Shown here: positions 1 to 17,441 of the stretch, one piece after another
Numbering within the stretch: position 1 is the first letter of the stretch
Layout of the letters: each line of letters begins with the position of its first letter
Source of the DNA: Chloroflexota bacterium
GTDB taxonomy: Bacteria; Chloroflexota; Dehalococcoidia; Lucifugimonadales; JACQTT01
NCBI GenBank assembly: GCA_016210665.1
Contig: JACQTT010000013.1
Coordinates: 1-17,681 of the forward strand
Length of the DNA stretch: 17,681 bases
Reading direction: 5' to 3'
Translations under genes and position numbers: made by a program
The notes under the pieces: generated by a model
The model's input: only the letters and a program-made list of their open reading frames with translations
Database searches by the model: none
What the model was told of the DNA's origin: nothing

Positions 1-284
1 CCCAGGTCGAGGTCGGAACCGAATGTATAAATAACTATCAAATATGAAATGTAAATAGCTTCCCATCCCATCACGGATCCCACCAAGCCCTCACCGGAAT
101 CATCAAAAAAAGCGGGCAGAAAAAAGGACGATACGAATAGCACCACCGGGACTAGCGCAACTGCAAAATAGGCCAAGGCGCTTAACCTCCTCTCTTTAAG
201 CTGATTCGAACGTTGTCTAAGGCCAATCGCAATCGCTCCCAGAGCAGCGGCTACCAAGATGATGCCAAGAATAAGCATTAACAT
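1..284 (-). CDS. Polytopic membrane protein, 5' part only (runs off the window start). The N-terminal ~30 codons, RBS and promoter are duplicated from the flotillin gene. The remainder is paralogous to the 2572-3288 membrane protein.
   Basis: I reverse-complemented 1-300 by hand. ATG at 282-284 is preceded by GGAGAAGGGAACG (strong SD) and there is no stop through position 1. The translation is MLMLILGIILVAAALGAIAIGLRQRSNQLKERRLSALAYFAVALVPVVLFVSSFFLPAFFDDSGEGLVGSVMGWEAIYISYLIVIYTF... The first 22 aa are near-identical to the flotillin N-terminus (MLTLILGIILVAAALGAIAIGLGQ). From RRLSA onward it aligns with the 2572-3288 protein (RRRWAAGLSLPLLGLILASFFLPTISVCEGSG), sharing the SFFLP and SG motifs. 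It is not in the ORF track because it lacks an in-window stop. Confidence 0.5.
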   Translation of the reverse strand, partial: MLMLILGIILVAAALGAIAIGLRQRSNQLKERRLSALAYFAVALVPVVLFVSSFFLPAFFDDSGEGLVGSVMGWEAIYISYLIVIYTFGSDLDL

Positions 285-383
285 CGTTCCCTTCTCCTAG
301 CATGTTCGAGTCATCACTATTGTCATGGAAGAGCGCCCTTTCCAGCAGGTGCAAATGAGCTGTTTGTGTATGGTACCGGCTAC
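285..383. promoter_or_regulatory. Copy A of a triplicated intergenic regulatory module, upstream of the 1-284 membrane-protein gene.
   Basis: Positions 190-383 match 2055-2240 (copy B) at about 85-90% nucleotide identity, including the motif CAGGTGCAAATGAGCTG at 345-361. The motif lies 61 bp upstream of the ATG, the same spacing as in copy B. Confidence 0.6.
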
Positions 384-393
384 GAAGCAAGAT

Positions 394-425
394 GGCAAGG
401 CAGCCAGCTTACCGACCGCCTTGCC
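394..425 (-). terminator. Candidate hairpin terminator downstream of the flotillin gene.
   Basis: A perfect 8-bp inverted repeat GGCAAGGC (394-401) / GCCTTGCC (418-425) with a 16-nt loop lies 29 nt past the flotillin stop on the minus strand. It is followed by AUCUUGCUUC, which is only moderately U-rich. The loop is long, so the call is weak. Confidence 0.25.
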
Positions 426-453
426 ATACAAGAAACCGCCTCTACCTCTCCTC

Positions 454-2148
454 CTATTTGTCCTGACTAGAAAACAACGTTCCTTTTGCCAGGTTGCTAG
501 CTCCTCCGAGGATTGCCGCAAAGCCCTCCATTCCCGTAGAGCTTCCTTCGACCATGATGACGGGAACCTTCACGATGTTAGGGTTCTCGATGGCTGCCTC
601 AAGGGTCTTGATTAGCGCTTCAAGTTGTAACACCCTGTCCTGGCCAAGCACCTTAACCTGGGCGTCCTGTCCCCGTGCGATGGCAGTCAACTCGGCCTCG
701 CGGCCTTCACCGCGAAGCTGTGATGCCAGTTTGTTCTGTACCTCGATTTGCACACCTACCTGAGCAGCCACCAGTTGGTCCTGCTGGTCAGCAGTTGCCC
801 TGGCCTGTTCCGTCAGAACCCTCTGTTCTTGCGCCCGCTGCTCCCGTGCATAGGTCTTTTCTAGCTCCTCGGCCAGTTGCCTGCGAGCGAGGGTCACCAG
901 CAACTCTGGCGGGATGACAGGGTCGCCAAAGCGGACCTCCTTGACAGAGATTCCCGCCTTTCTTCCTTCCGGGATGATAGTCTGTTTCACGAGTTGCTCA
1001 AGTTCTGCCCGTTGGTCCTGAAGCTCAAGCACCTTTCTGCCCCTCTCCCCAATCACATTGCGGACCACGCTTCCCAAGGTCCGAGTCAAGATCCTTTGCT
1101 CCACTTCAGTCAAACCCCCGACTGCGGCAACAACAAAGGGCGCATCCTCAGGCGCTATCTGAACGATCAATCGGACCTCAATCGGGACCGTCCAGCCCTC
1201 GACTCGGACAGGAATTGCGCCTTCGACGGCCGTTGGTGGAACAGGAACATTTTGCTTGACCTCATCCTGAGTGATCCTACCTTCCTGATCCAGCTTCAAG
1301 TTAATAACTCGCCTCTCGTATCCACCTGAGTACTCCCACGCATAGACCCGAGTACTTATGTTAATCACCTCGTAAGCATTCGCGTTCAGATAATACCTCC
1401 CAGGTAACAGCGGCTCGTTCCATACTCCAATGCACCCTTTTGGTACCAGGGGAATCGCCAGAGTTTGCTCTTGAGGTTGTGGTACCGGTATGCAGTTGTC
1501 AGACGTCTGAACGTTCGACTTTACCACGCCCACACTACCAATCGCAATGTTGGTGACTGGCTTTACTACGACATCGAACAGGTAGCGATGTACGCGATAC
1601 TTCCCAGGAGGAAGAACTGACAGTTGGGGTCCTTTCTGTCCGCCGTTGTGTAGGAAATACTCCGCTTCAAGCATTTTCTCGAACTCTGCTTCAGGCCATT
1701 CATCTGCCAGGATCTGTCCCGGGCGGAGGGGGGCTCCGTCCCGGGCTAACAGCAACCCGTATGAGTCAACGGGGATCTCGACAACTGAAAACTTTTCCAC
1801 CTTGTACAGCACGTTGAGAAGGGGACTGAACTTAAATCCAGGTGATAATACTTCCGCTTGAGGTCCAGCCTGCCCCTTGAAGGCTATGATCTGCCCAGGA
1901 GGCATCGATAAGCCACCGTAGACGCGCTTCAAGTGTCCCATTTCATCGGCTCCAACGACCGTGAAAGACGTCCCCAGCAGGAGCCCCAACCCCACTAAGC
2001 CAAACAAGACGACACCAACTGAAACACCGTATAGCAGCCAGACCTGGATATCCTTATTTACAAGCCTATTCAAACGTTGTCCAAGGCCAATAGCAATCGC
2101 TCCCAGGGCAGCGGCAACCAAGATGATGCCAAGAATAAGCGTTAACAT
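454..2148 (-). CDS. Flotillin-family SPFH/band-7 membrane protein (YqiK/FloT-like).
   Basis: A 564-aa ORF with ATG at 2146-2148 preceded by AAGGAGGGAACG. It has two N-terminal hydrophobic helices. SPFH-like segments are present (PGFKFSPLLNVLYKVEKFSVVEIP; RLIVQIAPEDAPFVVAAVGGLTEVEQRILTRTLGSVVRNVIGER). The long Glu/Ala/Gln-rich coiled-coil tail (AEELEKTYAREQRAQEQRVLTEQARATADQQDQLVAAQVGVQIEV...) is typical of bacterial flotillins. Confidence 0.85.
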   Translation of the reverse strand: MLTLILGIILVAAALGAIAIGLGQRLNRLVNKDIQVWLLYGVSVGVVLFGLVGLGLLLGTSFTVVGADEMGHLKRVYGGLSMPPGQIIAFKGQAGPQAEVLSPGFKFSPLLNVLYKVEKFSVVEIPVDSYGLLLARDGAPLRPGQILADEWPEAEFEKMLEAEYFLHNGGQKGPQLSVLPPGKYRVHRYLFDVVVKPVTNIAIGSVGVVKSNVQTSDNCIPVPQPQEQTLAIPLVPKGCIGVWNEPLLPGRYYLNANAYEVINISTRVYAWEYSGGYERRVINLKLDQEGRITQDEVKQNVPVPPTAVEGAIPVRVEGWTVPIEVRLIVQIAPEDAPFVVAAVGGLTEVEQRILTRTLGSVVRNVIGERGRKVLELQDQRAELEQLVKQTIIPEGRKAGISVKEVRFGDPVIPPELLVTLARRQLAEELEKTYAREQRAQEQRVLTEQARATADQQDQLVAAQVGVQIEVQNKLASQLRGEGREAELTAIARGQDAQVKVLGQDRVLQLEALIKTLEAAIENPNIVKVPVIMVEGSSTGMEGFAAILGGASNLAKGTLFSSQDK

Positions 2149-2357
2149 CGTTCCCTCCTTCTAATATATTCGAGTCACCACTATTCTCATGGCAGAGAGC
2201 CCTTGCCAACAGGTGCAAATGAGCTGTTTGTGGGTGGTACACGCTACTGCTTTTTCGTGGTACATCTGAACCTGGTATCGCGGGCTGCCCTGCGATGTAC
2301 AATGGATGGCACAGAGGTCTCTTGTCTCCGAGTTATGCACCGCTGAGGCAATGGGCT
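2149..2357. promoter_or_regulatory. Copy B of the regulatory module. It is a divergent promoter region: the left half matches copy A and the right half matches copy C.
   Basis: 2055-2240 matches 190-383. 2200-2527 matches 3322-3652 at about 92% identity. The motif CAGGTGCAAATGAGCTG at 2210-2226 lies 62 bp upstream of the flotillin ATG. A -10-like TACAAT at 2298-2303 faces the plus strand. Confidence 0.6.
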
Positions 2358-2527
2358 ATGGAAAAGAGTTCAGCCCCCAATTACGCCGTGTTTGAGGACT
2401 ACCGCTCCAGCCAGGGCATCGCCGTGGTGGTTCGGTGGTTTATGCTGGCAACCTGGCTCACCCTCATCAACATCCGTACCCAGGAGTCTAACCTTCCCTA
2501 TCTCAACACTATGGGCACGGCCCTGTC
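2358..2527 (+). pseudogene. Truncated remnant (about 57 codons) of a paralogous DesK-type sensor kinase gene.
   Basis: Track ORF 2295-2609 gives MYNGWHRGLLSPSYAPLRQWAMEKSSAPNYAVFEDYRSSQGIAVVVRWFMLATWLTLINIRTQESNLPYLNTMG... This is co-linear with the N-terminus of the kinase at 3478, including the RBS and ATG. Homology stops abruptly at about 2527 and the ORF then reads into unrelated sequence that overlaps the 3' end of the minus-strand gene. Of 12 nucleotide differences from the intact gene, 8 are synonymous. Confidence 0.6.
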
Positions 2528-2571
2528 GGTGACATGCCTCAACCTGAATCAGAGAACTGCCTATGGATCCA

Positions 2572-3288
2572 TCAGTCCTTTCCTAACCAACTCGCGCAAG
2601 GCACGATGAACAGTAAGATTAGTACGGCTGCCCCAAACATGTCCCAACCGATCAAAAGGCCGCCTATACTCCCCACTCCAATTATCGTGAAGAGTACCCA
2701 TGACGCGGCTAGACACCCGTACGCCCCCAGGAAGTAGCTCCAACGGTGCCAGCCACCAACTGTGGCGATTCCTCGTACTAAGAGAAGGCAGGCCATGATT
2801 CCAGTTGTTAGCAGATAGGTGAGAACGAAACCCTCTCGGCCCCAATCGACTTTGTCAAGGTCCTTCAGGGGAACTCCAAGGGTCACCCAGCTGACCCAAA
2901 ACCATGTGCCGAGGGAGAGAACAAGTGCAGCCGAGGCGGCCCCTCCGAAAACGCGCCCAGGACGATGTCGTCGGACCAAGGCCCCTACCGTGGATAGTAG
3001 AAGAATCAGCGCGGCTAAATAAAGAGGATAGCCTTGCCAGTCCAAGTCGTAACCACGAAGTTCAGTAACTCCGCTCCCCTCACATACTGAGATAGTCGGC
3101 AGGAAAAAGCTTGCGAGGATGAGGCCCAGGAGGGGCAGAGACAGGCCTGCGGCCCAGCGTCGGCGGACCTCTGGCCCGCCTGACGGAATGTCCTCCTTGC
3201 CCTCTACTGATGTGGAGGCCCCAACTCCTGTCGTGGGTCCCGTTTCAGCCATCATTGACATCTCCTGGTTCATGTGAGCACCTCGCAT
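2572..3288 (-). CDS. Polytopic integral membrane protein with about 6 TM helices and unknown function. It is paralogous to the 1-284 gene.
   Basis: A 238-aa ORF, almost entirely hydrophobic helices (LPLLGLILASFFLP, YPLYLAALILLLSTVGALV, AASAALVLSLGTWFWVSWVTLGV, GFVLTYLLTTGIMACLLLV, CLAASWVLFTIIGVGSIGGLLIGW, AAVLILLFIVPCASWL). The real start is probably the internal Met at 3273 (GAGGTG-CTCAC-ATG) or a later one. This would put the shared motif at -58, matching copies A and B. Confidence 0.7.
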   Translation of the reverse strand: MRGAHMNQEMSMMAETGPTTGVGASTSVEGKEDIPSGGPEVRRRWAAGLSLPLLGLILASFFLPTISVCEGSGVTELRGYDLDWQGYPLYLAALILLLSTVGALVRRHRPGRVFGGAASAALVLSLGTWFWVSWVTLGVPLKDLDKVDWGREGFVLTYLLTTGIMACLLLVRGIATVGGWHRWSYFLGAYGCLAASWVLFTIIGVGSIGGLLIGWDMFGAAVLILLFIVPCASWLGKD

Positions 3289-3477
3289 AGTGGAACTGTG
3301 CTTATTGTCTGCGAGTCCAGACCCTTCTAACAGGTGCAGATGAGCTGATTATGACCGGTACGGGCTACTGCTTCTTCGTGGTACATCTGAACCTTGTGTA
3401 GGTCTGCCTGCGATGTATAATTGATGGCACAGAGAGGTCTCTTATCTCCGAGTTATGCACCGCTGAGGCAATGGACT
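3289..3477. promoter_or_regulatory. Copy C of the regulatory module, with a sigma70-like promoter for the kinase/regulator operon.
   Basis: Motif CAGGTGCAGATGAGCTG at 3331-3347. A -35-like TTGTGT (3394-3399), a 16-nt spacer and a TG-preceded TATAAT (3416-3421) predict a transcription start near 3428. The RBS GAGG (3464-3467) lies 10 nt before the ATG at 3478. Confidence 0.5.
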
Positions 3478-4722
3478 ATGGAAAAGAGTTCAGCCCCCAA
3501 CTACGCCGTCTTCGACGACTATCGCTCCAGCCAGGGCATAGCCGTGGTGGTCCGGTGGTTCATGCTGGCAACCTGGCTCACCCTCATCAACATCCGTTCC
3601 CAGGAGCCCAACCTTCCCTATCTCAACACGATGGGCGCGGCCCTGATCATACTCAACGGCTACGTCCATTGGAGGATTTGGAGGGGCAGGCCCATTACAT
3701 GGCCCTACGTCCTGGCCCTGAGCCTGATGGACCTCACCATTATCACGGCGGGCATCATGGTCACCAGCAGGTTCGGGAACACCTATTATATCTTTTACTA
3801 TCCGGCGCTTCTGGGCGTAGCCCTCATCTTCCGCCGCCGGGTCAGCTTTGCCATTGTCACCATTATCGCTGGGTTCTATGCCGGCATCAGCCTGACTATG
3901 AAGCCAGGATTAGACACATCGGTGCTCTTTGACGGCGACGAGAAGGAGCTCACCGTCAGGGTGGTATGCATGTTCGCCGTCGTGGTAGCTGCGAATCTCA
4001 TGACTCGGTTGGAGAGGCAGCGGCGAGCCGAGGCGGTGGAGGCGGAACGGATCCGCATGGAGGAGAACCTTCTGCTCCAGCGCAGAGCGGAGGAGGCAGA
4101 GCGGGAGGCACAGGAGGAGCGGATTCGCATCTCCCAGGAGATTCACGACGGGGCGGCCCAGTCGGCCTACATGCTCAGCCTTGGCCTTGAGACTTGCTGT
4201 CACATGGCCGGCCAAGAGGCCCCCCAGCTCCACGACAGGCTGAAGGCACTCCACGCAGAGTCCAAGCAGGCCCTGTTGGAGCTTCGCTATCCAATCAACC
4301 TCGGGCCCCTGTTCGAAGGCAGAGGCCTGACACAGATCCTGGCAGACCACCTGACGAATTTCAGGGCCATAACTTCTATCCCCACGCATTTCTCCATGAC
4401 CGGACAGGAGACGGAGTTGCCACTAGCCACCCAGCAGCGGCTGTTTGCGCTAGCCCACAATGCCCTGACCAATGCCTACAAGTATGCCCAGGCTACCGAG
4501 GTCAATGTGGAGCTGGTCTGCGATGACAAGACGCTAAAGCTTTCCATCAGCGATAACGGGGTGGGCATGGACACTACCGCACTGGCCGCCTCCTCCGGCC
4601 ACGGGATACGGAACATGCGCCGCACCGCAGAGGAGATGGGAGGGGCTCTGGATATAACCAGTGCTCCGGGGAAGGGTACAATAGTGAGCGTAGCCCTCTC
4701 TCTTTCGGGAGGTGCGCCGTGA
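3478..4722 (+). CDS. Membrane-embedded sensor histidine kinase of the HisKA_3 family (DesK/LiaS/NarX-type) with a HATPase_c domain.
   Basis: The N-terminal part has about 5-6 TM helices with no obvious extracytoplasmic domain. It has a coiled-coil linker, an H-box RISQEIHDGAAQS typical of HisKA_3, and C-terminal N/G boxes (LAHNALTNAYKYA ... ISDNGVGM ... GHGIRNMRRTAEEMGG). The track ORF begins at 3421 (TTG). I prefer 3478 because the predicted -10 places the transcription start downstream of the 3421/3424 start candidates. Confidence 0.85.
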   Translation: MEKSSAPNYAVFDDYRSSQGIAVVVRWFMLATWLTLINIRSQEPNLPYLNTMGAALIILNGYVHWRIWRGRPITWPYVLALSLMDLTIITAGIMVTSRFGNTYYIFYYPALLGVALIFRRRVSFAIVTIIAGFYAGISLTMKPGLDTSVLFDGDEKELTVRVVCMFAVVVAANLMTRLERQRRAEAVEAERIRMEENLLLQRRAEEAEREAQEERIRISQEIHDGAAQSAYMLSLGLETCCHMAGQEAPQLHDRLKALHAESKQALLELRYPINLGPLFEGRGLTQILADHLTNFRAITSIPTHFSMTGQETELPLATQQRLFALAHNALTNAYKYAQATEVNVELVCDDKTLKLSISDNGVGMDTTALAASSGHGIRNMRRTAEEMGGALDITSAPGKGTIVSVALSLSGGAP

Positions 4723-5384
4723 GCCCTCTGAGAGTCATGATTGTGGACGATCACCAGGTCGTGAGAGAGGGATTGCGAAAGGTCCTGGAAGTAGAGGAAA
4801 ACATCGAGGTAGTGGGGGAGGCGGGGGATGGGAGGCAAGCTGTGGACAAGGCACAGGAGCTCAAGCCGGACGTGATCCTCATGGACGTAATGATGCCTGG
4901 CATGAATGGTATAGATGCCTGCCAGGAGATCAAGGGTCTCTTACCCCGTACCGCCGTGGTGATGCTCACCGCCTCAGGGCTAGCGGAGTCCGTTACTGCT
5001 TCCCTAGTGGCGGGCGCTCAGGGCTACGTGCTGAAAGTCGTTGGGCGGGACGAGTTGGTCCGCGCCATCAGAGCCGTAGGGCGAGGCGAGTCTATCCTGG
5101 ACCCTTCCGTGACCAGGATAGTCACTGAAGGCTTCTCTCGCCTGGTGGGCCAGGAGAGGCAGCGAGAGGTGGAGCGACTTACCTCCCGAGAGAAGGAGGT
5201 GCTGCTCCTGGTGGCCCGGGGAGAAACCAACAGAGAGGTGGCCGAGCGGCTGGTCATCAGCGAGTTCACGGCAAGAAATACGGTGAGCAATATCCTGGGT
5301 AAGCTTGGGCTGAGGAATCGCTCTGAACTGGTGCGTTGGGCCTTGAACAACAGGGTGGTAATGGAGCCTGGTAACTACTCGTAA
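4719..5384 (+). CDS. NarL/FixJ-family response regulator (receiver domain plus LuxR-type HTH).
   Basis: GTG start at 4719 preceded by GGAGGTG, overlapping the kinase stop by 4 nt. It has an MIVDDHQVVREGL receiver with the conserved D (ILMDVMMPGMNG). The C-terminal LuxR HTH reads LTSREKEVLLLVARGETNREVAERLVISEFTARNTVSNILGKLGL. Confidence 0.9.
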   Translation: MSPLRVMIVDDHQVVREGLRKVLEVEENIEVVGEAGDGRQAVDKAQELKPDVILMDVMMPGMNGIDACQEIKGLLPRTAVVMLTASGLAESVTASLVAGAQGYVLKVVGRDELVRAIRAVGRGESILDPSVTRIVTEGFSRLVGQERQREVERLTSREKEVLLLVARGETNREVAERLVISEFTARNTVSNILGKLGLRNRSELVRWALNNRVVMEPGNYS

Positions 5385-12448: not shown

Positions 12449-13774
12449 CTACTGAGCAGGAGGCGGCAGCACCTTGCGCGCCTGGCGGATGACGCCTAGT
12501 AAAAGAAGGGCCACTATAACAGCGACCACGCCAAGGGCCGCAGGTAAGAGCCAGGGGAACCGCTCGCTGACGGGAGGCCTCTTCTCCACATAGTCGGGAT
12601 TGGTGTTCTGGGGACCCAGGGCAGCTTGCGCCAACTCCTCGGTCTCGAGGTAGGGAAAGACCCGCTCGATATCATAAGAAGGCCGCCGGGCTTCGAGATT
12701 ACCGTAGTAGAGCTTGTACAACTGCCCGGGGTCTGTCGTGTAGAGGAGGCTGCGACGATAGCTCCATGCATCTACACCTTCGATATGAAGAGGCGGGCTG
12801 TCCTCGTCGTGGATGACCAGGCGTAGATAGCGTAAGGTGGTCTCGGGATAGACGATGGCGAGGTTACCTCCAACAAACTTCGGGGTGTCGTAGGCGTAGA
12901 TGCCAGCCCTCGACTGGGCGGTGCTCCACTCCTTACGGTCAGCACTCTCCTCTATGGTGACCTCTCGATAGAAGTTGACCTCGGACACCCTAACCTGAAC
13001 GCGATGGCTAGGAAGCCCTGGGCTACCCGTGTCCATCTCCACGAGGGTGGCGCGGCGATCTCTGTCGTAGCTAGTGCTTACCATAGATACGGGCCAGGAC
13101 ACCTCTTGTGCTGGGGTAACCTTTATAAAGAAAGTGGTAGCGCCGAGTACGTCCAGGGGGCCTTCACCCTCGTCGGCGACCTTAACCCGCAGATAACGCG
13201 CCGTGCTGGCTGGATACCCTATCCTTGTGTTGCTGGCGCTAAAGTTTCGCTCCTTGACGGTGAAATCATAGATTTCCTGCTTGCCTACCTCAGCCCATGT
13301 ACCTCCATCGTTACTGGTTTCCACGGTGGCTGTACGGCGGAAGTTGATGGCGGGAGTCTGGAACTCGATCTCGTTGTGTAGGAGTCCATCGCGCCCCAGG
13401 TCGGCGATGAATGTGGTGTAGAGGTCAGGAACGTAACCCTTGTCCTGTAAGGTCACTGGGAAGGACGTAAACTGACGCTCGCCCCTACTGACCTGGAACT
13501 TGTACGGAACCTCCGTGCCAGCGGTGGAGATGATGCGAAGGTCAACCAGGCCGAGGGCCGAGCCAGCAAACACCTCGCGATCTGGGACGAGCTCCACAAG
13601 ACCCTTGCTAAGGAGGTTAGAAGGGGAAGCAATGGGCTTGAAGTACTGCCAGTCACGGAGTAAGAAGTCAGCCGCCACGCTGGAGGCGAGCAAGGCCGTC
13701 AGAACGACGGCAGCGGTGATGGATCTGGCAACTAGAGCGACCCTACTTCTCAACCAGGAACCCCCTGATGGCAC
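12449..13774 (-). CDS. DUF3999-like protein: N-terminal signal/anchor, a large beta-rich extracytoplasmic domain, and a C-terminal TM anchor.
   Basis: A 441-aa ORF with N-terminal hydrophobic segment ITAAVVLTALLASSVAA and C-terminal anchor FPWLLPAALGVVAVIVALLLLGVI followed by RQARK. The overall length and topology match my recollection of Pfam DUF3999. It overlaps the upstream DUF2339-like gene by 32 nt, so the two are probably translationally coupled. The family assignment is from memory and is not searchable here. Confidence 0.65.
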   Translation of the reverse strand: MPSGGSWLRSRVALVARSITAAVVLTALLASSVAADFLLRDWQYFKPIASPSNLLSKGLVELVPDREVFAGSALGLVDLRIISTAGTEVPYKFQVSRGERQFTSFPVTLQDKGYVPDLYTTFIADLGRDGLLHNEIEFQTPAINFRRTATVETSNDGGTWAEVGKQEIYDFTVKERNFSASNTRIGYPASTARYLRVKVADEGEGPLDVLGATTFFIKVTPAQEVSWPVSMVSTSYDRDRRATLVEMDTGSPGLPSHRVQVRVSEVNFYREVTIEESADRKEWSTAQSRAGIYAYDTPKFVGGNLAIVYPETTLRYLRLVIHDEDSPPLHIEGVDAWSYRRSLLYTTDPGQLYKLYYGNLEARRPSYDIERVFPYLETEELAQAALGPQNTNPDYVEKRPPVSERFPWLLPAALGVVAVIVALLLLGVIRQARKVLPPPAQ

Positions 13775-15704
13775 GACTGTAGCGCTGGTAGAGATAAGCG
13801 CTAGCTAGCAGGATGACCCCCAGACCCATGAAGGCACCTATGCGGTAGACACGCTCCAGGGCAAATATGTCGTAAACAAACACCTTGGCGATGGGGATAA
13901 GGAGAAGACCCAGGGCGGCCAGACGAATCGGGCGTGAGCGCTTGACTATGCCAATAACCAGGGCAATGGCGGCGTAGCCGGCCCATATAGCGGTGAGGGA
14001 GAGATTCTGAGCGTTTCTGAGGTTGTCGTCGGTACCCCTAAACCTCTCAAAGCGGGGCAGCTCTGTAAACCTGCTGTCGAAGTAGCTGAGCGCCTCCGCG
14101 CTGAGGATCCAGAGGGAGAAGACGTTGGCAGCCAATATAAAAATAGGATACACGAACCAGGCGTTCCTCTCCCACTCGTCCAGTGACCCTCTTTCACGCC
14201 AGAGAAGGCGTGCGGCGATGTATATGGAGGCGATGCTTACCAGAAACGCTAGAAAGCGCTCGTTGAGCACCGGGCGGAAAGTAGCCAAATCTACATAATC
14301 AATCGGCGTGTCGAAAAAGAGCAGTCGCACGGCTACGAGAACGAAGGCGGCGTAACTAAAGATGCGGGTTCGAGGCATCTGCAACGTAAACGATAGCCAC
14401 ATAAGCACTGTACCCTCGGCTGCCCAGGCAATAGTCGTCCAGGCCCTATCGCCTAACTGCACTGGGATGGCGATGGTAAGAAACACCAGGGCGATGCCCA
14501 GGGCCAGGAAGCTGAGCCTCACATTTTCGGCGCTACGTTTAAGGGCGACATAGGCGAGGCCGCCGTAGAACAGGGCCAGGAGGATAGAGAAGCCCCCCAT
14601 CCATAGTCTGAAGTCATCCCACAAAAGCCCATAGCTTATCCCAAAGTAGGCACCCGCGTTGATAATCATGAGAGCCTGGTCGAAAGCCTGGGGAGCACGA
14701 CGCCAGACGATGTGATAAAGGGTCGTGGCTCCTACAAAGATGAGGAATATCAGGGTCAGGCCACCCTGGGATGTCAGCAGGCTCGCTTCGTTGCCAAACT
14801 CGCTATACCATCCCCCGAAAGCCACCAGAGTCGCCAGGAGCGAAAGAAGGGTGAACCAGCGCCAGTTGCGGAAGGTGGACAACGCTAGGACACCCAGGTC
14901 AACTACCATTATGTAAACCAGGAGTTGTATGCTCTCGCCGGCCTGGGCAGCCCCACGCGTCTCTGGTGCAAAGCCACCAAGGATAAAGGGTGCGCCGAAG
15001 GCCCCAAGGATACCGATTATCGCCAACGCCGTGGAATCGTGGCGAAGGGCCAGGGCCGCCGAGGTCACACTGATCAGTAGCAGGAAACCGACGGCGGGAT
15101 TCAGGGTAATCAGGTTAAAGATGGCAAAGGCGGCGAAGATAGCCAGGTATAGGAGGGCAATGCCGCCTCCCATCAGGGCCTGGGCGTAGGCTGGGTATCG
15201 TTTTTGCCAGTACTCACCGGCTCCTAGCATTGCCAGCCCAGCTATGATTCCCAGGACTACACGCCCTGTCGGGCCTATCCAGTTGTTGTCGAAGGCTAGC
15301 TTGAGGAAGAAGGCAACGCCAATAATAATAGCAAGAACCCCAATCCTGGCTAGCCAGTTGCCGCCAAAGATCTGCTCCCAGTCCCACTCCTTCATTCTCT
15401 TGAAAATGTCTCCATCAGGTGGTGCTGGAGTTTCTTCGGCTAGACCAGGGACCTCTCCGGCGGTAACCGAGGCGACCTCTAGCGCAGGTGTCGGCTGGAG
15501 AGGCGGTGCGGCGACTCCTCGTACGCGTTCAAGGGCAGCCAGACGCTCGTTCATAGCCACAAGGTTACCCCCTAAGCGGCGCACCTCGGCCTGGAGCGCT
15601 TCTATCTGCTGAGCCGAGGTTTCAGGTGCTGCAAGAGCGGTGCCACAGGAGATGCAGAACCGACTGTTCGGGGTGTTCTCGTGCTGGCAGTTGGGGCAGC
15701 GCAT
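13743..15704 (-). CDS. DUF2339-like large polytopic membrane protein with an N-terminal zinc ribbon and coiled coil.
   Basis: A 653-aa ORF with ATG at 15702-15704 preceded by GGAGACAGGA. It has CPNCQHEN...CISCG (zinc ribbon) and QQIEALQAEVRRLGGNLVAMNERLAALER (coiled coil). About 18-20 predicted TM helices then begin at FGGNWLARIGVLAIIIGVAFFLKLAF, which is typical of DUF2339 proteins as I recall them. Confidence 0.65.
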   Translation of the reverse strand: MRCPNCQHENTPNSRFCISCGTALAAPETSAQQIEALQAEVRRLGGNLVAMNERLAALERVRGVAAPPLQPTPALEVASVTAGEVPGLAEETPAPPDGDIFKRMKEWDWEQIFGGNWLARIGVLAIIIGVAFFLKLAFDNNWIGPTGRVVLGIIAGLAMLGAGEYWQKRYPAYAQALMGGGIALLYLAIFAAFAIFNLITLNPAVGFLLLISVTSAALALRHDSTALAIIGILGAFGAPFILGGFAPETRGAAQAGESIQLLVYIMVVDLGVLALSTFRNWRWFTLLSLLATLVAFGGWYSEFGNEASLLTSQGGLTLIFLIFVGATTLYHIVWRRAPQAFDQALMIINAGAYFGISYGLLWDDFRLWMGGFSILLALFYGGLAYVALKRSAENVRLSFLALGIALVFLTIAIPVQLGDRAWTTIAWAAEGTVLMWLSFTLQMPRTRIFSYAAFVLVAVRLLFFDTPIDYVDLATFRPVLNERFLAFLVSIASIYIAARLLWRERGSLDEWERNAWFVYPIFILAANVFSLWILSAEALSYFDSRFTELPRFERFRGTDDNLRNAQNLSLTAIWAGYAAIALVIGIVKRSRPIRLAALGLLLIPIAKVFVYDIFALERVYRIGAFMGLGVILLASAYLYQRYSRAIRGFLVEK

Positions 15705-15880: not shown

Positions 15881-16603
15881 ATGGTGGGCGGCATGAACGC
15901 CCGCCTCGCACTCTACATAATTGGGACAATTCTTATCGTGCTAAGCGTCATCGAGAATGCGCTGCCGGAGGCTATCGGAGGCATACTTGCCGGGCTGCTT
16001 ACCATCTTCACAGTTGCTGTCCTATCGCATTGGCGCCTGCATCGCCCTTTCAATTTTAGATTCTCCCTTGACCCGTATCGTTTTAGTCCGCAACTAGTCA
16101 GGGAGCGCAAACATGCAACGCATTGGGAGATCGCAGTCAATCAGGAAGCGGAATTACTACTGAGAATCATGCCCAGGAAGGGAACTCACTTCACTCGCGT
16201 AGGCGTTCGCTGTGTGGAACGGTACTTCACATGGAGATGGGACATTCTGCGCCCGCGAGTTTGGGCATGGCGGAATGCTCCGACATCAGCAATTGAGATT
16301 AGAGCGGTGCGCGACATTGACTCCGAAAGCATCAATTCGGCGACCCACCAATTAGGTACGCAGTTCAGGACTTGGCCTGATGGCGTGGGTGGAATGTGGG
16401 GAGAATATCACCCACCTTACCATCGGACTATGGAGGACTCGTTATGGCTCTGCGTCAAGTTGGTCGCATACAGACCATGGACGGGGCACATATCCTTCCA
16501 GGGGCATATTGATGAGGACCATCGTGCCTATAGCCGTCGAGCGCTTTGGGCTATTGAGCAACCAGACGTTCATATGGCAAGTTATCACTGCCTAGAAGCC
16601 TAG
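15881..16603 (+). CDS. Hypothetical passenger protein inside the IS. It has an N-terminal 2-TM hairpin and a W/R/H-rich soluble domain of unknown function.
   Basis: A 240-aa ORF lying entirely between the inverted repeats. It has TM segments LALYIIGTILIVLSVI and IGGILAGLLTIFTVAVL and no recognisable family motif. Its 3' end overlaps the convergent transposase gene by 53 nt. The true start may be the second Met at 15893. Confidence 0.4.
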   Translation: MVGGMNARLALYIIGTILIVLSVIENALPEAIGGILAGLLTIFTVAVLSHWRLHRPFNFRFSLDPYRFSPQLVRERKHATHWEIAVNQEAELLLRIMPRKGTHFTRVGVRCVERYFTWRWDILRPRVWAWRNAPTSAIEIRAVRDIDSESINSATHQLGTQFRTWPDGVGGMWGEYHPPYHRTMEDSLWLCVKLVAYRPWTGHISFQGHIDEDHRAYSRRALWAIEQPDVHMASYHCLEA

Positions 16604-17441
16604 TGAGTGTATCCCGAAACAGATACGGGTTCTTGCGATTGTTGAACCGCCATTCTAATTCATCCAGGTAAGCATCAAGGTGTTTGGCAGAGAGCTTATG
16701 ATAAGAGCCAGTGATAGACCGCTTGAAGAGACTCCATACCCCTTCTACAGTGTTGGTGTGAACATCGCCCCTTACCCATTCCTCTGCCCGGTGATTTACC
16801 GTCTCATGGCTCGTATCCTCATCGGAAATCCCTCTGTATGCAGGCCATTCGTCCGTGATGATTCTCCGCACCCTGGGGTCTGTGCTATTGTGGATAAAAT
16901 CATGGAGTGTCTGCCTGTCATTGCCGTCAACGACCTGAAGAACAACATCCCCACCACGTTGCATCGCTCCTGCCACGATAGTCTTGTTACCTTTATAGCC
17001 ATGCCCCTTCCCTCGAACCTTCCCACCTATATAGGTCTCATCCACCTCGATAGTGCCAGAGAGAGTGTTTGCTTCGGCCATAGCAGCCCTTATCCTGTGG
17101 CAGAGATACCATGCTGTCTTGTAGGAGACTCCCAGGGTTCTCTTGACCTGATTGGCCGAGATACCCTTTTTGGCCTCGACCATCAGCAAGACAGCCATGA
17201 ACCACTTGCGGAGCGGGAGTTTGGTATCCTGGAAGATAGTCCCAGCAAGAGCGGTGAAGCCATAGCCACAGCCGTAGCAGTCATAGCGGTAGGTCTTGGA
17301 GTCGTAGCCATGTTTAGTACACTTGCATCGTGGACACTCTGCGCCATTTGGCCAGCGAAGCCGAGCAAGAGTATCATGGCAAATATCCTCCGAGTGGAAC
17401 ATCTCGGTGAGTTGGAGTAGGTCAATCTTTTTGGTAGGCAT
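16551..17441 (-). CDS. IS1595-family (ISXO2-like) DDE transposase with an N-terminal zinc-ribbon domain.
   Basis: The N-terminus reads LARLRWPNGAECPRCKCTKHGYDSKTYRYDCYGCGYGF (transposase zinc ribbon). The hallmark IS1595 motif TIEVDETYIGGK is present, with D, D and E residues spaced as in DDE_Tnp_IS1595. A strong AGGAGA SD sits 5 nt before the ATG. Confidence 0.9.
   Translation of the reverse strand: MPTKKIDLLQLTEMFHSEDICHDTLARLRWPNGAECPRCKCTKHGYDSKTYRYDCYGCGYGFTALAGTIFQDTKLPLRKWFMAVLLMVEAKKGISANQVKRTLGVSYKTAWYLCHRIRAAMAEANTLSGTIEVDETYIGGKVRGKGHGYKGNKTIVAGAMQRGGDVVLQVVDGNDRQTLHDFIHNSTDPRVRRIITDEWPAYRGISDEDTSHETVNHRAEEWVRGDVHTNTVEGVWSLFKRSITGSYHKLSAKHLDAYLDELEWRFNNRKNPYLFRDTLTRLLGSDNLPYERLVAQ

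Follow-up and report, generated by a model that had tools for sequence, protein, structure and literature searches.

A chimeric gene formed by duplication of a neighbour's 5' cassette onto a small membrane-protein gene in a Chloroflexota bacterium

In envelope-stress modules of the LiaFSR type an intramembrane-sensing HisKA_3 kinase and a NarL-family regulator control adjacent membrane-stress genes, for example liaIH. Genes for stomatin/prohibitin/flotillin/HflKC (SPFH) proteins occur together with genes for partner membrane proteins, for example in SPFH-NfeD operons. At the rnk-citT module of the E. coli long-term evolution experiment a promoter was reportedly captured by local duplication. 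Promoter capture by duplication or deletion has been described (PMC6614815), as have composite and fusion genes in prokaryotes (PMC6769587). In this study we analyse a locus at the end of contig JACQTT010000013.1 (assembly GCA_016210665.1) of a Chloroflexota bacterium, where an open reading frame (ORF) joins the start of an SPFH gene to the body of a small membrane-protein gene. The window, i.e. the whole stretch that was analysed, is the complete contig of 17,681 nucleotides (nt), and this edge ORF runs off the contig end and not merely the edge of a window.

The edge ORF is a real, moderately old chimera, in which the 5' cassette of a neighbouring gene was duplicated onto the orthologue of a gene encoding a membrane protein of 155 amino acids (aa) in relatives. 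As in promoter capture of the rnk-citT kind, a duplicated segment would bring an existing promoter to a gene without its own, and the donor stays intact. Unlike in those captures, the duplicate adds a ribosome site and 27 codons, which makes a protein fusion, and the event is old (~12% divergence), natural and part of a three-gene reshuffle around a repeated regulatory motif. As in composite genes (PMC6769587), parts of two unrelated genes make up one gene; however, the donated part here is a single transmembrane (TM) helix plus regulatory DNA and no folded domain, and donor and recipient are neighbours. That local duplication can capture promoters and fuse genes is known (compare PMC6614815 and PMC6769587); the locus is a good natural example of this mechanism and not a new class of system. 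The genes concerned are the following:

1-284, minus strand: chimeric ORF, 94 open codons from an ATG at 284-282, ended by the contig end
204-284, minus strand: donor-derived part of the edge ORF, codons 1-27, a copy of the first TM helix of the SPFH protein and of its loop GL(R/G)QR(S/L)N
1-203, minus strand: recipient-derived part of the edge ORF, orthologue of the 155-aa membrane protein (P0121/P0122) from about codon 5 on
454-2148, minus strand: donor gene (HY666_00810), still intact, for an SPFH/Band_7 protein of 564 aa with two N-terminal TM helices (Pfam)
2572-3255, minus strand: gene for a membrane protein of 227 aa (238 aa when started at the ATG at 3288); its orthologue in the relative stands second in the row of genes (245 aa)

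The closest SPFH relative, P0002 (84% identity), lies on three contigs, L006, L007 and L008, and L006 serves as the reference in what follows. The translation of the edge ORF begins MLMLILGIILVAAALGAIAIGLRQRSNQLKERRLSALAYFAVALVPVVLFVSSFFLPAFFDDSGEGLV and the N-terminus of the SPFH protein begins MLTLILGIILVAAALGAIAIGLGQRLNRLVNKD. By repeat finder and blastn, window 198-383 and 2062-2247 form a direct repeat of 186 nt (88% identity, E 5e-63) that takes in about 100 nt of upstream DNA, the ribosome site and the first ~27-29 SPFH codons. When both copies are anchored on the ATG, they agree at 84/100 positions of the upstream 100 nt, at 62/66 in codons 1-22 and at 79/87 in codons 1-29, and past codon ~29 identity drops to 37%. 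A sequence-only reading of this DNA had pointed to the likeness of the two gene starts and their upstream DNA, and the four helix differences that it listed, three synonymous and one Thr/Met, are exactly right by the codon table (GTA/GTT, GCT/GCC and GCG/GCT beside M3T). The same table shows the edge copy tracking the SPFH gene to AAT (codon 27) and then the 155-aa gene (CAG CTT against CAG CTC). The junction thus lies in frame at codon 27/28, at about nt 203, equivalent to about codon 5 of the 155-aa gene.

As the feature lies <300 nt from the end of a contig from a metagenome-assembled genome (MAG), in a repeat-rich locus, one might suspect an assembly chimera: a contig end mis-joined via the repeated promoter/5' sequence or between related strains. 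We consider this very unlikely indeed. The copy at the edge ORF (copy a) and that at the SPFH gene (copy b) differ at ~12% of positions, spread along their length, which marks copy a as genomic sequence in its own right rather than a collapsed repeat. Exact matches between copies extend over 24 and 36 nt at most, hence too short to explain a mis-join; together with the copy divergence they also rule out assembly collapse as the source of the repeat. The SPFH/155-aa junction itself shows microhomology of a few bases only, and past the SPFH stop the region is collinear with L006 up to the upstream motif described below.

The 3' segment of the edge ORF is orthologous to a gene that has its own start in relatives. 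Residues 25-92 match residues 3-68 of P0121 with 40% identity (BLASTP, E 9e-12), and on the nucleotide level window 109-161 matches L006 7446-7393 (78%). P0122 (82% identity to P0121) is the only further relative of P0121 detectable. Both proteins start MVNSSQ(L/S)SPRLQ.TVQ and continue directly with a VP.VLFVVSF.LP helix, so that neither of the two intact orthologues carries the SPFH-like helix with which the edge ORF begins. Side by side, the 155-aa genes of L006 (7343-7810) and of L014, a further contig (165-632), show no stops or indels, residues ~60-92 are invariant, and near-neutral and constrained segments are mixed. For the 94-aa edge protein no homologue was found in an index of 5.8 billion proteins and no locus in metagenome contigs, and a metagenome scan with the 155-aa alignment gave nothing beyond one contig already in the set. 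Neither the 155-aa nor the 227-aa protein matches a Pfam or NCBIfam family, and an AlphaFold model of the former (pLDDT 48) is too poor for use.

Which gene carried the N-terminal helix first? We found it in 21/21 SPFH homologues read (19 database matches and two genomic loci; 50-84% identity), at residues ~3-22, with a basic loop and then another TM helix behind it. The survey took in 19 homologues at 50-72%, P0002 at 84% and two gammaproteobacterial genes (L001, L005); the source names include Planctomycetota, Desulfobacterales, Hyphomicrobiales, Gammaproteobacteria and a candidate phyla radiation (CPR) bacterium. Because all SPFH homologues read have the helix, it is an ancestral trait of the SPFH family, whereas in the edge gene it is derived. 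The reverse option, offered by the sequence-only reading, that the SPFH gene took its first helix from the membrane-protein family is ruled out by the helix in every homologue read, and both intact 155-aa orthologues are without it.

The donor had been called a flotillin. It is a member of the SPFH/Band_7 family (Band_7, PF01145, E 1.3e-11, 45.3 bits against a cut-off of 23.6, residues 317-441), but no flotillin-specific match was found in Pfam or NCBIfam and no sequence match in the PDB; NCBI lists it as a hypothetical protein, source databases name it 'SPFH domain-containing protein' or HflC-like, and 'flotillin-like' is a loose label. Its family has >1,300 members in many phyla, with no curated NCBIfam model and no solved relative, and the ~250 residues between the second TM helix and the Band_7 match belong to no Pfam family. 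By the positive-inside rule the large SPFH and coiled-coil part is predicted outside the cytoplasm, with the basic loop between the TM helices. A scan of GTDB genomes with the SPFH protein returned only ~50%-identical gammaproteobacterial genes, which lack this locus. As in SPFH-NfeD operons, an SPFH protein is here encoded with small polytopic membrane proteins; unlike there, the partners have no NfeD or other Pfam/NCBIfam domain, and distant SPFH homologues lack these neighbours.

The sequence-only reading had also named the recipient, as a paralogue of the protein at 2572-3288. While its chimeric gene with an SPFH 5' cassette holds good, this part of it is not supported. The 2572-3288 protein is the orthologue of the 245-aa protein of the relative (62% identity, E 2e-97), and it does have a different, soluble N-terminus, as had been noted: a hydrophilic tail of ~33 residues ahead of the first TM helix. 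The edge ORF contains SFFLP, and its likeness to this protein is real but weak, with 7/17 identities around SFFLP and a BLASTP E of 0.10 (single comparison). Were the recipient a paralogue, N-termini would have been exchanged within one gene family. For this it can be said that the two families share an N-terminal basic stretch, TM helix and SF[FC]LP, that hhalign pairs 29 columns of this part (P 0.0015), that a second weak local match exists (KRYGP against RRHSPG) and that the 245-aa and 155-aa genes adjoin in L006. However, the hhalign probability is 17%, with only three sequences of the 155-aa family available for the comparison, and full-length BLASTP of P0121 against the 245-aa orthologue gives E 0.12. 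An exhaustive HMMER search yielded six representatives of the 227/245-aa family, with FFLP, P110, W180, R182, W183 and G214 invariant; apart from FFLP, these residues, including the WxRW motif, have no collinear counterpart in P0121, and the edge ORF ends before the region. Between the two shared motifs lie two hydrophobic (TM) segments in one family and one in the other, and the 155-aa gene matches the edge ORF far more closely and specifically. Hence paralogy is not demonstrable, and we regard it as unlikely, though the two families may be very distantly related. The 227-aa protein gave a marginal model (pLDDT 64), for which the best hit of a PDB fold search (E 0.19, TM-score <0.4) is noise; distant members of its family stand in gene contexts unrelated to this locus.

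The rearrangement becomes visible when the window is laid beside its closest known loci, for which the control regions and the kinase genes are needed as well:

285-383, minus strand: copy a, promoter-proximal region, 84% identical to 2149-2247 (five-copy alignment)
346-376, minus strand: motif of copy a, a putative operator, GTACCATACACAAACAGCTCATTTGCACCTG (pattern match)
392-427, minus strand: terminator-like hairpin of 16 bp just past the SPFH stop (RNA fold z-score -3.7)
2149-2357, minus strand: copy b, the whole intergenic region from which the SPFH gene and the kinase fragment diverge, with the motif at 2210-2240
2358-2525, plus strand: duplicated 5' fragment of the kinase gene, first 56 codons, ~93% identical to 3478-3645
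3289-3477, minus strand: copy c, a hybrid intergenic region, with a kinase side like that of copy b and a motif (3331-3361) and gene-proximal side like those of the second promoter of the relative
3478-5384, plus strand: genes for a HisKA_3 histidine kinase (414 aa, multi-TM N-terminus) and a response regulator (4719-5384) with REC and GerE domains (NarL/LiaR type; Pfam, NCBIfam)

In an L006-type locus the kinase and response-regulator genes run divergently from a row of SPFH, 245-aa and 155-aa genes, with promoter P1 before the SPFH gene and P2 before the 245-aa gene. In the window, the kinase gene diverges from the 227-aa gene, which is followed by the kinase fragment; this in turn diverges from the SPFH gene, behind which a promoter copy with the SPFH 5' end is fused to the 155-aa gene. 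Window 340-2516 is collinear with L006 6412-4223 and covers the region downstream of the SPFH gene, the gene itself, the intergenic region and the first 56 kinase codons. Mapped on L006, window 2572-3273 is the 245-aa orthologue, and 3381-5359 corresponds to the kinase-side part of the intergenic region with the kinase and regulator genes, while 3324-3370 finds its best match in the P2 motif ahead of the L006 245-aa gene. In the five-copy alignment copy b is P1. Copy c consists of the distal part of P1 followed by a P2-type motif and proximal part, and copy a of the distal part of P2, with its conserved hairpin, followed by a P1-type motif, proximal part and SPFH codons 1-27. Copies a and c both switch at the GTAGC..GTACC edge of the motif, which is the pattern that a reciprocal exchange would leave.

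A second layout comes from L014 (Logan SRR12113401), a 1,038-nt contig ~91% identical to L006. Here L006 6316-6487, which contains the hairpin and the P2 motif as well as the ribosome site and start codon of the 245-aa gene, directly adjoins the sequence from L006 7343 on, where the 155-aa gene begins with its ATG. The two segments occupy 1-172 and 165-1034 of the contig, and the 245-aa gene is absent. As the join falls within a shared ATGG.GAA, the 155-aa gene gains no residues. This may be a deletion from start codon to start codon or, conversely, L006 may carry an insertion. L014 would be an independent parallel, with the 155-aa gene directly behind a motif-bearing promoter. Both types of relative (L006 and L014) are thus laid out differently from the window, and the 155-aa gene is a separate gene in both. 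Its motif-bearing promoter is met in three layouts: shared with the 245-aa gene in L006, where co-transcription is probable, direct in L014, and as a borrowed cassette in the window.

The duplicated kinase 5' end differs from the kinase gene by 9 synonymous and 4 nonsynonymous changes (synonymous divergence, dS, 0.28). For the SPFH 5' piece dS is 0.15-0.18 between the two window copies, against ~0.59 between the window and L006, and the codon table shows that the window copies share many derived states against L006. Given these shared states and a dS of a quarter to a third of the window-L006 value, the duplication post-dates the L006 split and is not recent. The synonymous divergence of the SPFH 5' piece and of the kinase fragment is similar, which fits a single duplication. 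The frame of the kinase fragment is open to 2609, giving 84 aa from its ATG, lies antisense to the 3' end of the 2572-3255 gene and retains a promoter-like TAYAAT box of the kinase side. The fragment looks like a pseudogene but might also encode a small membrane peptide or belong to an antisense transcript.

What the chimera received in front of its start codon resembles a control region. Copy a holds a Shine-Dalgarno-like AGGAG 9 nt before the ATG, a -10-like AATAGT, a weak -35-like CTGGAA and the conserved motif. In copy b a consensus scan finds promoter-like TTGGCA-18-AATAGT at 2209-2180, and the promoter role of copy a is putative. The original GGAGG has become GAAGG in copy a and an AGGAG has arisen three bases upstream; the ribosome site has therefore been kept. 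A 31-nt pattern, GTACCNNNCANANACNGNTCATNTGCACCTG, has exactly 3 matches in the window, with 0 expected, at 346-376, 2210-2240 and 3331-3361, all on the minus strand. Each L006-type locus has 2 matches, only upstream of the SPFH and 245-aa genes, so that all motif copies (3 in the window, 2 in L006) stand upstream of these genes and none elsewhere. The motif abuts the weak -35-like hexamer, followed by the AATAGT -10-like hexamer, and its position fits an activator site. An Rfam search of window 1-3700 gave no match; thus no known leader RNA explains the conserved upstream block. The hairpin divides the SPFH gene from the promoter copy of the chimera. A GC-rich hairpin of 15-16 bp is found also at L006 6326-6358 and L014 11-43; across the three lineages the sequence changes keep the pairing (z-scores -3.7 to -5.3), and the U-tract behind it is poor.

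A HisKA_3 + HATPase_c kinase and a REC + GerE regulator are encoded beside these genes, and in L006, too, the pair adjoins the SPFH gene. Their best NCBIfam similarities are to MctS/R, MadS/R, LiaS and NarL, all below the cut-offs. As in LiaFSR modules, the kinase is of the HisKA_3 class with a multi-TM sensor and no large extracellular domain, its partner is a REC+GerE regulator, and the adjoining putative targets encode membrane proteins, each behind the same conserved box. Unlike in LiaFSR modules, there is no LiaF, LiaI or PspA/LiaH homologue here and the main target would be an SPFH protein; the matches to LiaS, MctS and MadS score far under their NCBIfam cut-offs, and binding of the regulator to the motif is putative. 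The adjacent two-component system presumably regulates the three motif-bearing promoters, co-occurrence being the whole basis of this link.

It might still be possible that the edge ORF is a decaying scar of the rearrangement, with a frame open by chance and a product that is absent or irrelevant. Between L006 and L014 the 155-aa gene shows a ratio of nonsynonymous to synonymous divergence (dN/dS) of ~1 (proportions of differing sites, pS 0.119 and pN 0.118); the edge part and its orthologue share only 40% identity, where the SPFH protein reaches 84% and the 245-aa protein 62%; the locus holds another evident fragment, the truncated 5' end of the kinase gene; and the substitutions are too few to prove constraint on the borrowed codons. 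However, the fusion is in frame and 94/94 available codons are open despite ~12% divergence of the duplicates. Codon usage is like that of real genes: the post-junction part scores 0.26, where in-frame genes average 0.22 +/- 0.12 and off-frame windows -0.43, none of the latter scores as high as the edge ORF, and all five other frames are closed. A Shine-Dalgarno-like AGGAG was retained though the original GGAGG mutated. Against the 155-aa orthologue the tail of the edge ORF has dN 0.56 and dS 1.4, a ratio of ~0.4, and two other lineages have kept the 155-aa ORF whole, its central block being invariant. We therefore regard a mere scar as unlikely, though not negligible, and take the edge ORF as a gene.

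How could such a locus have arisen? Starting from an L006-type layout, a copy of ~460 nt, from kinase codon 56 across intergenic P1 to SPFH codon 27, would have been inserted between the 245-aa and 155-aa genes. This insertion would create both novel junctions and join the gene of the fast-evolving 155-aa protein in frame at about its codon 5. Excision, or an unequal exchange, between the P1 and P2 motifs could then have moved the SPFH gene, which re-entered at the third copy, so that recombination among three motif copies would swap the SPFH gene and the 227-aa gene. Amplification followed by deletions would be an alternative route to the same end state. In the outcome each of three membrane genes would stand behind its own copy of the motif-bearing promoter, presumably driven by the NarL/LiaR-type system. 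Taken as a whole, this account, a chimera made by local duplication of a control region, recombination at the motif and promoter capture, is in our view likely.

Several points weigh against it. The ancestral layout is read from one related lineage and a 1-kb contig; the distant SPFH homologues (72-57% identity) stand in unrelated contexts and therefore provide no outgroup that carries the locus. In copy a the consensus scan calls no sigma-70 promoter at the position equivalent to that in copy b. As the sequence-only reading said, the changes in the borrowed codons are mostly synonymous, and its count is right, but its inference that both copies were kept as coding sequence is weak: 3 synonymous against 1 nonsynonymous change gives a one-sided p of ~0.07, and the kinase fragment shows the same bias (9 to 4), which is therefore no proof of function. 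Only 94 codons of the chimera are readable. Read from the sequence, an internal AGGAGG-N9-TTG at codon 36 is a possible start for a helix-less product. Finally, given the near-neutral evolution of the 155-aa family between L006 and L014, the gene may be marginal in importance.

If the chimera is expressed, it would be translated from the borrowed ribosome site and gain one N-terminal TM helix, with no basic segment ahead of it and RQRSNQLKERR behind. From hydropathy and the positive-inside rule the added helix is predicted to lie with its N-terminus out and its C-terminus in. This would leave RQRSNQLKERR in the cytoplasm, where the native N-terminus of the 155-aa protein is placed, and the topology of the rest would be kept. 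Because the 155-aa gene is served by a motif-bearing promoter in all three layouts, we consider capture of the promoter and ribosome site to be what selection probably favoured, with the helix mainly carried along and tolerated, and we regard the 27 borrowed codons as the price of an in-frame join. A bolder idea would be that the motif-bearing promoter (~31-45 nt) is a portable recombination module that reshuffles the genes of its regulon, with the donated helix serving as an address tag into the TM ring of the SPFH oligomer. It draws on three lineages with three layouts, on hybrid copies that switch at the motif edge and on the L014 deletion, which would start just downstream of a motif copy; as a whole we find it decidedly doubtful.

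Elsewhere on the contig, an IS1595/ISXO2-like transposase gene (16551-17441, minus strand; DDE_Tnp_IS1595, E 1e-40) lies near the other end and overlaps the 3' end of an unannotated 240-aa ORF (15881-16603, plus strand). A DUF2339 membrane protein with an N-terminal zinc ribbon (13743-15704, minus strand) overlaps a DUF3999 protein (12449-13774, minus strand) by 32 nt, and the two look like a conserved gene pair.

In conclusion, the locus offers a natural record of a bacterial gene that would have gained, by a single event, both new expression signals and one more membrane helix. The donor, the recipient and the junction can be identified, and so can a plausible ancestral layout, with what would be an independent parallel in a sister lineage. 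It suggests that the repeated operator/promoter boxes of one regulon can be substrates for recombination that re-orders its genes. The locus also points to an uncharacterised partnership in Chloroflexi, in which an SPFH protein and two orphan membrane proteins are paired with a membrane-sensing two-component system.

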